Virus record (IMG/VR): IMGVR_UViG_2703718781_000017
Direction: 5' to 3' (one strand)
DNA length: 5,671 nt
Source: a virus
Taxonomy: Duplodnaviria; Heunggongvirae; Uroviricota; Caudoviricetes
The position numbers and the translations under genes were made by a program. Position 1 is the first letter of the stretch. Each line of letters begins with the position of its first letter. Under the pieces are notes generated by a model. The model was given only the letters and a program-made list of their open reading frames with translations, made no database searches and was not told where the DNA came from. Positions 959 through 5,671 of the stretch are shown piece by piece.

Positions 959-1225
959 ATGCAAGCTGTTTTTTCTTCCCCGTCTCCCGCCCCTGTGACG
1001 CCACTGATGCCGCTGCCGGACATCACGCAGGAGCGTTTTTTACGTCTGCCGGAAGTGATGCACCTGTGCGGCCTGTCACGCTCGACCATCTACGAACTCA
1101 TCCGTAAGGGGGAATTTCCGCCGCAGGTGAGTCTTGGCGGTAAAAATGTGGCCTGGCTGCACTCTGAAGTCACCGCATGGATGGCCGGCCGCATTGCCGG
1201 ACGCAAACGGGGGTATGACGCATGA
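959..1225 (+). CDS. alpA: AlpA-family phage/island transcriptional regulator (helix-turn-helix, excisionase-like fold)
   Basis: Translation contains the hallmark AlpA motif [52 protein letters not shown] at 947..950 sits 8 nt upstream of the ATG at 959. An alternative start at the in-frame ATG 1007 would give the more typical ~72 aa length but lacks a Shine-Dalgarno. Stop TGA at 1223..1225. Confidence 0.85.
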
Positions 1226-1260
1226 TGATGCCCGCTCTGCAAAAACTCCCTTTTTCTGGC

Positions 1261-1290
1261 TTGCCTTTTTCCGGCATTTGCGGATATAGT
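1261..1290 (+). promoter_or_regulatory. Candidate sigma70 promoter in the leader downstream of alpA
   Basis: TTGCCT at 1261..1266, an 18-bp spacer, then TATAGT at 1285..1290. Predicted start near 1297. Sequence-only prediction. Confidence 0.3.
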
Positions 1291-1353
1291 CTTTCCGTTG
1301 CCGCAAAATCGGCAGCCGGGCGTGAGAACCCGTGTAGCTCGAAGGCGACATAT

Positions 1354-1375
1354 GACGCGCCATGCGTCTTTTTTT
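1354..1375 (+). terminator. Short hairpin plus T7 tract: candidate weak intrinsic terminator or attenuator
   Basis: GACGC (1354..1358) pairs with GCGTC (1364..1368) around a 5-nt loop, followed by seven T (1369..1375). The stem is only 5 bp. An outer pairing GCGACA (1345..1350) with TGTCGC (1377..1382) encloses the hairpin and T tract, suggesting alternative folds. It could terminate alpA transcription or a ~80 nt transcript from the 1261..1290 promoter. Confidence 0.35.
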
Positions 1376-1507
1376 GTGTCGCAATCAACGCCACAGAGCG
1401 CCAGATTATGGTGTGGCGTGTGGTTTGCCGTGCAGGTATGATCCTGTTCGCAATCGCATGTTATGCCACTGAGTCAATGGTAGCTCAGGCGGGGCAGCCT
1501 CCGGGCT

Positions 1508-1535
1508 GGCCGGTATTCTTCGAGGCCGGTATTCT
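1508..1535 (+). repeat. Perfect 12-bp tandem direct repeat GGCCGGTATTCT (period 16 bp)
   Basis: GGCCGGTATTCT at 1508..1519 and again at 1524..1535. It lies in the leader upstream of the first cassette gene and is followed by a 9-bp-stem hairpin (GCTATCGCC 1549..1557 pairing with GGCGATAGC 1576..1584) just before the ribosome-binding site of the 1615 gene. Confidence 0.8.
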
Positions 1536-1614
1536 CACCCCCGTCTGGGCTATCGCCATCGAGCGTGAGAACTCCGGCGATAGCAGTTATTTGCTACTCG
1601 AAGGAGGCTGCCTT

Positions 1615-1812
1615 ATGGCTACAACCCTTACCCCCTCACACCCTGAATTTGTCTTTGTGTTTGCGGCTGTCCGTCGCGCAGACCGTCATCCCCGTATCTG
1701 TATGCTTCGCACCGTCGCCGGTGATGAACGCAGTGCCCGCCGTTCCCTTGTCCGTGACTATGTGCTCTCCCTTGCTGCCCGTCTGCCGGTGGTGGAGGTG
1801 TCCCGTGCGTAA
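1615..1812 (+). CDS. Small hypothetical protein (65 aa), first gene of the alpA-to-primase cassette
   Basis: Strong AAGGAGG Shine-Dalgarno at 1601..1607 sits 7 nt before the ATG at 1615; stop TAA at 1810..1812. Product is [65 protein letters not shown]. Small proteins in this position of P4-like islands are often annotated as Icd-like, but I cannot confirm homology from sequence alone. The ORF-track version 1222..1812 would cross the promoter and terminator-like leader features and is unlikely to be translated in full. Confidence 0.6.
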
Positions 1813-2092
1813 TAAAAAAGCCCCTCAGACCGTCTCAGCGCGTCATGACGCCCGTGAACACCTCAGCATTGAGGCTTACCATAAGCTCAACCGCGCCAGC
1901 GCCGTATCCCAGTTTGTTGGGGGTGATTTGATTCACCGTGAACTCTCCGGCCTGCATCAGCTCTACATTCCGCATATTTTCAGCTACCTGAATGAAGATA
2001 TTGATTTTGTGCTGAATGAACTGAAAGCCAAAGGCCTGTGCCGCGATTTTCTCGCCCAGCAGAAAGACCGGGGAGACAGGACGCATGTTTGA
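1805..2092 (+). CDS. Hypothetical protein (~95 aa), probable GTG start, translationally coupled to the upstream gene
   Basis: GGAGG at 1794..1798 sits 6 nt upstream of GTG at 1805, which overlaps the TAA stop of the previous gene. The frame stays open to TGA at 2090..2092 and contains no in-frame ATG after 1805. The only ATG-initiated version (1565) would overlap the 1615 gene out of frame for 240 nt. Product is [95 protein letters not shown]. Confidence 0.5.
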
Positions 2093-5375: not shown

Positions 5376-5390
5376 ATCCCTGAATTCCCC

Positions 5391-5671
5391 GAAGGTGAAC
5401 AATCCACTGTTCACCCTTCACCGTATATTCACCCGTTATCACACTGAAATTAAAAGAGAAAAACGAAAGGTGAACAGTGTGAACAATCAAATCAAAAAAA
5501 ACTTTTTTCTTCCGGTGTGATTTCAGCACGGGAAATTAATCCCCTGCACAAGTCACACCGGCAGAATGCCGGAGGTGAAGAATCGAATGTTCACCCTTCA
5601 CCCATTATTCACCACCTATCACTATGAAATAAAATGAGAAAACAGAAAGGTGAACAGTGTGAACAGTTCTT
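5391..5671. repeat. crr-like cis replication region: two ~100 bp imperfect direct repeats spaced 180 bp apart, each carrying TGTTCACC and GGTGAACA iterons
   Basis: Unit 1 (5391..5488) and unit 2 (5571..5668) align at roughly 80 percent identity with a 180-bp offset. Exact octamers: GGTGAACA at 5394..5401, 5469..5476 and 5649..5656; TGTTCACC at 5408..5415 and 5588..5595. Degenerate copies include CTTCACC, ATTCACC, GGTGAAGA and GTGTGAACA. A GC hairpin precedes each unit (5351..5368 and 5558..5572). The window ends inside or just after unit 2. Confidence 0.75.

Follow-up and report, generated by a model that had tools for sequence, protein, structure and literature searches.

What is the function of the leader of about 390 bp (positions 1226-1614) that lies between the alpA homologue and the first gene of the following cassette? 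The DNA analyzed here (hereafter, the window) is a stretch of 5,671 nucleotides from a Caudoviricetes record of IMG/VR (IMGVR_UViG_2703718781_000017). A preliminary description, based on the letters of this DNA, had found in the leader a promoter-like element, a short terminator, a 12-bp tandem repeat and a hairpin, had seen no convincing protein gene in it, and had proposed that it might encode an RNA switch analogous but sequence-unrelated to the one known from phage P4. The immunity mechanism of P4 was worked out in the 1990s, and its CI RNA, 79 nt in size, is processed by RNase P and PNPase. The immunity factor of P4 is an RNA (PMC4825925, PMC10111431), which is processed from the leader transcript and pairs with the seqA and seqC sequences to cause premature termination (PMC4825925).

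Homology to the immunity region of phage P4

In a search of phage records with blastn, window positions 1226-1820 matched phage P4 with 92.2% identity over all 595 bases. The gene order orf88, legacy cI ORF (which spans kil), epsilon, orf151, orf106 and alpha is common to the window and the P4 record. An Rfam scan of the whole window returned exactly three matches, all of them on the + strand, inside 1226-1614 and above their gathering scores; the C4 and isrK families also exceeded their gathering scores in P4 and in nine other loci. With 92% identity to P4 over 595 bases and C4 and isrK matches in both, the proposal of a sequence-unrelated switch is refuted. What holds of the original idea of an RNA switch or small RNA is that the leader encodes a small antisense RNA, processed by analogy with P4, together with targets that would control the downstream genes; its unrelatedness to P4, its division into separate devices and its non-coding nature do not hold.

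The structured leader is the already known RNA immunity switch of P4, and its RNAs are already in Rfam. We are highly confident that 1226-1614 represents the immunity region of a satellite prophage of the P4 type, with the PLE/seqA/CI/seqC mechanism and a variant b module. The present analysis contributes to this assignment the homology, the folds, the complementarities, the covariation of both and the conserved reading frame.

For the comparative part, one-genome-per-species collections were searched with the alpha primase, which gave 80 loci, including representatives of Enterobacter, Citrobacter, Klebsiella, Pantoea, Erwinia, Serratia, Pectobacterium and Dickeya. The leader was found in nearly all of the 80, and 76 leaders from Enterobacterales were aligned and used for the pair counts, which are given below as the share of alignment cells in which the two bases pair.

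Promoter, seqA RNA and terminator

The upstream part of the leader contains the following features.

1261..1290, + strand: promoter PLE (-35 TTGCCT, 18-base spacer, -10 TATAGT)
1297..1375, + strand: seqA RNA, Rfam isrK family (isrK and c4-a1b1 matches, paired hairpins)
1297-1303 with 1310-1316, + strand: seqA hairpin I
1317-1320 with 1329-1332, + strand: seqA hairpin II, whose loop carries target a1
1322-1328, + strand: target a1, GUGAGAA, in the loop of hairpin II
1338-1345, + strand: target b1, CUCGAAGG
1354-1375, + strand: intrinsic terminator after seqA (hairpin 1354-1368, then T7)

The sigma70-like promoter of the preliminary description is present at 1261..1290 and corresponds to PLE of P4, where the stretch is identical to that of the window. 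It has 9 of 12 consensus matches and is the only such site found between positions 700 and 2000. In the 1984 P4 record X02534, the -10 element is annotated at positions 660-665 of locus L002, which are window positions 1285-1290, and across the 76 loci this element follows the pattern TA.AGT with five of six positions invariant.

The RNA that follows matches the isrK model (RF01394) at 1297-1374 with 65.5 bits (gathering score 50) over model positions 1-77 of 77, the terminator included, and the c4-a1b1 model at 1284-1336 with 50.3 bits (gathering score 46.7). Its hairpins are paired in 96-100% of cells in the 76 loci. The hairpin with a T7 tract near 1354..1375 was likewise correctly recognized, and it is the conserved intrinsic terminator following seqA: in the 76 loci its stem is paired in 96% of cells, the T7 tract is invariant, and the base of the stem shows a swap between G-C and C-G (53 versus 23 sequences). 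In P4 this terminator is named t1, and by analogy a short transcript ending near 1375 is expected. The outer pairing of GCGACA (1345-1350) with TGTCGC (1377-1382), previously suggested to sequester the terminator, also exists. It belongs to the minimum-energy fold of 1340-1385 (z = -2.3) and is paired in 84% of cells in the 76 loci, with a conserved core and essentially without compensatory change.

The seqA RNA of P4 has been described as the equivalent of IsrK (PMC4825925, PMC3632133), which raises the question of whether the transcript ending at the 1375 terminator could be more than a target, namely a small RNA acting in trans, either by titrating CI as a decoy or by activating the long transcript. 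The isrK model matches seqA over its full length, the trans action of IsrK is directed at its own read-through mRNA (PMC4825925), and a transposon screen in Salmonella Typhi scored IsrK-like sequences of P4-like prophages as required (PMC3632133). On the other side, the sequence offers nothing by which a decoy could be told from a target, and a trans-acting seqA would add to the P4 model and not replace it. By analogy with IsrK, we consider such a role conceivable, if rather unlikely.

CI RNA and the 12-bp repeat

The central part of the leader is occupied by an RNA of the Rfam C4 family, composed as follows.

1473..1560, + strand: CI RNA, Rfam C4 family (74.3 bits, gathering score 45)
1478-1494 with 1539-1555, + strand: outer (closing) stem of CI, 17 bp
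1495-1499 with 1504-1508, + strand: CI hairpin 1
1509-1513 with 1526-1530, + strand: CI hairpin 2, whose loop carries b'
1517-1524, + strand: antisense segment b', UCUUCGAG
1532-1538, + strand: antisense segment a', UUCUCAC, single-stranded

CI alone folds at -48 kcal/mol (z = -5.35). Its tRNA-like fold, a long closing stem with two hairpins, comprises 27 pairs, which are formed in 99.9-100% of cells in the 76 loci, and four of the five pairs of hairpin 1 show compensatory changes. The long dyad annotated in P4 in X02534 matches the CI stem.

The direct repeat GGCCGGTATTCT is indeed perfect at 1508-1519 and 1524-1535, and direct repeats of at least 12 bp arose in only 2 of 1000 dinucleotide-preserving shuffles of 1226-1614. 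It matches "direct repeat 4/4'" of P4 in X02534. In most of the 76 loci it is not kept as a repeat, and GGCCGGT alone recurs. The repeat consists of the hairpin 2 arms, GCCGG and CCGGU, with a copy of UAUUCU after each of them, and the two UAUUCU copies lead into b' and a'. It is a by-product of a stem with the arms GCCGG/CCGGU. A protein-binding or iteron-like site was considered for the repeat and rejected, because the repetition itself is not conserved, and the two halves form the arms of a stem that is. The repeat and the 9-bp hairpin downstream of it are parts of the CI RNA and of the downstream target sequence seqC, and not devices of their own, as the preliminary description had it.

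In the spacer that precedes CI, RNAalifold predicted a hairpin (1413-1421 with 1456-1464) with many compensatory changes, and an alternative pairing of 1390-1402 with 1479-1490, which belongs to the 5' strand of the closing stem of CI; of the predicted spacer folds, only a part is formed in the window itself. These folds may represent a precursor structure that affects processing.

The downstream target seqC and the ribosome-binding site of kil

Between CI and the kil start codon lie a second pair of targets and the translation signals of kil.

1549..1584, + strand: stem-loop displaying target a2 (perfect 9-bp stem)
1565-1571, + strand: target a2, GUGAGAA, in the loop of the 1549-1584 hairpin
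1597-1604, + strand: target b2, CUCGAAGG, overlapping the kil Shine-Dalgarno sequence and complementary to CI 1517-1524
1601-1607, + strand: kil Shine-Dalgarno sequence AAGGAGG, seven bases 5' of ATG 1615

Both elements that the preliminary description had placed here are present: the AAGGAGG ribosome-binding site before ATG 1615, and a hairpin with a perfect stem formed by GCTATCGCC (1549-1557) and GGCGATAGC (1576-1584). Of 1000 dinucleotide-preserving shuffles of 1226-1614, 23 contained a perfect stem of at least 9 bp; in the 76 loci the stem of the hairpin is paired in 99% of cells, with three pairs changed on both sides. The 5' arm of this hairpin doubles as the 3' strand of the outer stem of CI, and the two folds are therefore mutually exclusive.

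A further complementarity was seen between hairpin 1 of CI and the start of kil, with 1493-1502 (GGCAGCCUCC) being a perfect 10-nt complement of 1603-1612 (GGAGGCUGCC), the stretch from the Shine-Dalgarno sequence to the ATG. This pairing is formed in 89% of cells with almost no compensatory change in the 76 loci, and it is broken in loci with a different hairpin 1 sequence.

Antisense pairing across Enterobacterales

A search for pairing between leader-derived RNA and sequences elsewhere in the element had been suggested, and such partners lie on both sides of CI: its segments a' and b' complement a1 and b1 upstream and a2 and b2 downstream. UUCUCAC (1532-1538) is the exact complement of GUGAGAA at both 1322-1328 and 1565-1571, and CUUCGAG (1518-1524) that of CUCGAAG at both 1338-1344 and 1597-1603. 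In the 76 loci the four pairings are conserved as follows.

a1:a', 99.4% of cells paired, changes on both sides in 6 of 7 pairs
b1:b', 99.0% of cells paired, changes on both sides in 6 of 8 pairs
a2:a', 99.6% of cells paired, changes on both sides in 6 of 7 pairs
b2:b', 99.2% of cells paired, changes on both sides in 6 of 8 pairs

As a control, sliding the partners by 1-3 columns left only 28-46% of cells paired. All 30 inter-segment pairs are formed in 68 of the 76 loci, and RNAalifold, working from the alignment alone, predicted the pairing between seqA and CI unprompted. The covariation analysis across homologous islands that had been proposed for the folds gave a concordant picture, with the CI, seqA and 9-bp-hairpin folds being conserved with compensatory changes. 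The three-site covariation represents an unusually clean natural data set for RNA-RNA pairing.

In one locus from Mangrovibacter yixingensis (L055), the type of the seqA targets differs from that of CI and seqC. We discount a natural mismatch in this case, since L055 and a second locus of the same species (L053) each start at the end of a contig, within one and the same repeat; L055 is probably an assembly chimera.

The same data bear on a quite different reading of the leader, in which the promoter and the terminator about 65 nt downstream of it would be a loading site for AlpA as a processive antiterminator and the structures would be terminators to be bypassed. AlpA of Pseudomonas aeruginosa has been described as a processive antiterminator, and the window has alpA directly upstream of the promoter-terminator pair, with an intrinsic terminator shortly after the promoter. 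This model, however, gives the three-way covariation of the a and b segments no role, whereas antisense pairing explains it fully; moreover, no AlpA-binding element was identified, and in P4 the read-through of late transcripts is attributed to eta translation (PMC10111431). AlpA-dependent antitermination was rejected as the main explanation, because it leaves the covarying antisense segments unaccounted for, and we regard it as very improbable. The antisense mechanism of P4 is the reading that we follow below.

Coding capacity of the leader

The genes that flank or overlap the leader are listed here together with the terminator known from P4.

959..1225, + strand: alpA homologue, equivalent of P4 orf88 (Vis) (Pfam Phage_AlpA, 74 bits)
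1222..1812, + strand: eta ORF, 196 aa, spanning the whole leader, with kil as its 3' part (last 65 codons)
1615..1812, + strand: kil, 65 aa, Icd-like cell-division inhibitor (NCBIfam phage_ICD_like, 76 bits, cut-off 25)
1615-1771, inside kil: Rho-dependent terminator timm of P4, mapped through locus L001

The preliminary description had found no convincing protein gene in 1226-1614. This is not supported, as the eta frame 1222-1812 is conserved as an open frame in 68 of the 76 loci. In these 68, the frame in phase with ATG 1615 is open upstream past the promoter; its median length is 120 codons, and the medians of the other two frames are 44 and 9. The distances from the -10 element to the ATG in the 68 loci (286, 289, 292, 295, 325 and 334) are all equal modulo three, and all their spacer indels are multiples of three. 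The stop codon of alpA, whose P4 counterpart ORF88 is annotated as an excisionase and transcriptional regulator, overlaps the start of eta in the sequence ATGA. The 65-aa kil ORF (1615-1812) is in frame with ORF 1222-1812, whose start precedes PLE, and its sequence is identical to that of P4 kil.

This arrangement agrees with that of P4, in which eta, kil, an internal constitutive promoter and translation-dependent read-through have been described (PMC10111431). There, the constitutive promoter lies inside eta and Kil is translated only on read-through, while synthesis of full-length Eta requires the upstream late promoter and is coupled to the alpA homologue, and Eta translation prevents termination (PMC10111431). 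The terminator timm is located at X51522 8365-8209 (PMC3177188). The region is both coding and RNA, and the two functions coexist.

In seven loci from Pectobacterium and Dickeya (L059, L061, L065-L069), a 1-nt gap directly preceding the kil start codon shifts the conserved long leader ORF by one base relative to the kil ATG; in these loci Eta and Kil would not be nested in frame.

A conserved long frame also invites the opposite simplification, that the region is just protein-coding (eta or the old "cI/ash" ORF) and the hairpins and repeats are incidental. Pfam Phage_ASH (PF10554) matches 1408-1812, a legacy ORF that crosses the CI RNA into kil, and coding sequences are annotated: in the P4 record NC_001609 the legacy ORF over CI (8168-8584) is still labelled "transcriptional repressor", and in RefSeq the same 196-aa ORF of E. 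coli O145 is an "Icd-like" CDS with no RNA gene annotated. Coding, however, does not exclude an RNA function. The folds and intermolecular pairings covary base by base, three Rfam structure models score above threshold, the phage_ICD_like domain covers only the Kil part of the eta ORF, and the P4 immunity factor is the RNA introduced above. We therefore consider a purely coding region extremely improbable and retain the reading as an RNA immunity region within a conserved open frame; the labels Phage_ASH, "transcriptional repressor" and "Icd-like" are probably inherited misannotations of an RNA locus. For annotation, this matters in that the CI locus carries protein labels and, in RefSeq, no RNA.

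Proposed mechanism

The course of events set out here takes processing, termination and the CI-insensitivity of late-promoter transcripts from the P4 literature. The activity of the present element as an immunity switch is put forward by analogy with P4.

PLE (1261-1290) would act constitutively and start a transcript near 1297. Its first approximately 80 nt would form seqA, with two hairpins that would show a1 in a loop and leave b1 single-stranded, followed by the terminator at 1354-1375. Transcripts reading through this site would carry the tRNA-like element 1473-1560, from which the stable CI RNA would be excised. The CI segments b' (1517-1524) and a' (1532-1538) would then base-pair, on nascent PLE transcripts, with seqA (at a1/b1) and with seqC (at a2/b2), which would favor early termination and block translation of kil, and the block of kil translation would in turn expose the Rho-dependent terminator within kil. 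P4 has a second termination site, t4, between cI and timm. With epsilon, orf151, cnr and the alpha primase kept off, the element would remain lysogenic and immune to its own kind. On transcripts from the late promoter, ribosomes would translate eta (1222-1812), coupled to alpA, through the structured region, and these transcripts would be insensitive to CI because they are translated through eta.

The b module and immunity specificity

Compared with P4, the window carries changes that are concentrated in three short stretches and are coordinated and compensatory. They concern the b module.

b1: window CUCGAAGG, P4 UUCACAGG
b': window UCUUCGAG, P4 CCUGUGAA
b2: window CUCGAAGG, P4 UUCACAGG

From these sequences we infer that the change at three sites would confer an immunity specificity different from, or narrower than, that of P4. 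Full heteroimmunity to P4 is not certain, because the a module is identical to that of P4.

The 76 loci fall into at least 7 types for a and about 13-17 for b, of which 35 combinations occur; the two modules assort almost independently, and each type is matched at its three sites. The b type of the window (CUCGAAGG in the targets, UCUUCGAG in the antisense segment) is unique among the 76. Searched as an exact 40-nt CI core, the window type occurs in 89 of 5426 complete E. coli genomes and the P4 type in 206 of 5426; about 1000 loci were found in E. coli. In those sampled genomes with two or three elements that were compared by eye, a small number, the a/b combinations always differed. Examples of elements from the same genome are L007/L018/L031 (Enterobacter chuandaensis), L012/L045 and L060/L062, and some P4-like elements within one genome have one module in common and differ in the other.

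We tentatively suggest that P4-type satellites across Enterobacterales might use a combinatorial two-module RNA "immunity code", although we hold this possibility at well below even chances. The matched a/b segments would make it simple to read off which P4-like satellites should be mutually exclusive. The a/b diversity, as well as the sufficiency of a difference in one module for heteroimmunity, may be uncatalogued so far; a large survey of P4-like satellites nowhere mentions RNA and does not discuss a/b diversity (PMC8628076). Only the b-module variant and the combinatorial diversity of a/b types are modestly new aspects of the present locus.

Other features of the element

The octamer TGTTCACC, annotated in P4 as "ori type 1 repeat", clusters in 570-680 and 5390-5660.

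577, 587, 652, 663, 673 (+ strand) and 630 (- strand): TGTTCACC cluster 1, between sid and alpA
5408, 5588 (+ strand) and 5394, 5469, 5649 (- strand): TGTTCACC cluster 2, after the primase gene

The cluster between sid and alpA is the P4 ori, and the one after the primase gene looks like the P4 cis replication region. The cnr/orf106 homologue (DUF5375, 2676-2996) has a 1-nt deletion after about position 2850 relative to the element of E. coli O145 RM9872, which is otherwise near-identical, and its frameshifted product has 63 aa versus 106 aa. Either the gene is a pseudogene or the deletion is a sequencing error, and because of the frameshift the prophage may be partly decayed. Outside the window, the RM9872 element (L083, 1030-3320) contains a DEAD/DEAH-box helicase gene and a hypothetical gene between integrase and psu, an interval known as the defence-system hotspot of P4.

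Comparison with known systems

Among related RNA systems, the linear plasmid-prophages of the N15 type (N15, PY54, phiKO2) have a small processed RNA that controls an icd-antirepressor operon. In blastn searches, PY54, phiKO2 and Klebsiella phages match window 1477-1585, i.e. CI and the a2 hairpin, at 75-84% identity, and N15 has been listed among structurally similar systems (PMC3632133). The N15-type phages are complete temperate phages with other downstream genes, in contrast to the satellite in the window.

The IsrK/STnc1160/orf45-anrP locus of Salmonella Gifsy-1 resembles the window in that seqA matches the isrK model end to end, terminator included, and in having a processed stable RNA downstream of IsrK (PMC4825925), as in the P4-type layout. 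The roles differ, with IsrK being a trans activator of its own read-through mRNA and seqA of P4 a target of CI.

With the immI region of phages P1 and P7 (c4-icd-ant), the window has in common the C4 RNA family, the arrangement of targets a1/b1 upstream and a2/b2 downstream, the position of b2 at the ribosome-binding site of an Icd-like gene (kil in the window), and the control of downstream genes through translation of the first small ORF. Using blastn, no nucleotide similarity of window 1226-1820 to P1 was detected. The immI promoter is controlled by C1, whereas PLE is constitutive, and the cargo of immI is the antirepressor Ant, whereas that of the window is epsilon and the primase: no ant gene follows the icd-like gene in the window, where the next genes are epsilon (Pfam Derepression family, 170 bits), orf151, cnr and the alpha primase. 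Functionally the region is comparable to immI, but with this downstream cargo it is not an immI operon.

The closest relative is P4 itself. Every element of its immunity region (PLE, seqA, CI RNA with seqB, seqC, kil/eta and timm) has its counterpart in the same order in the window, with the same flanking genes, the same Rfam matches, and an identical promoter, kil and a module. The b module is unlike at all three sites, by 3-4 bases each and in a compensatory manner, and the spacer before CI is 9 nt shorter in the window. A similar divergence is said to have been described by Sabbattini et al. in 1996 for the retronphage phiR73, a relative of P4 that is reportedly heteroimmune through changes in CI and its targets. 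The principle would be the same as in the window, in that concerted changes of the antisense segment and its two targets determine the specificity.
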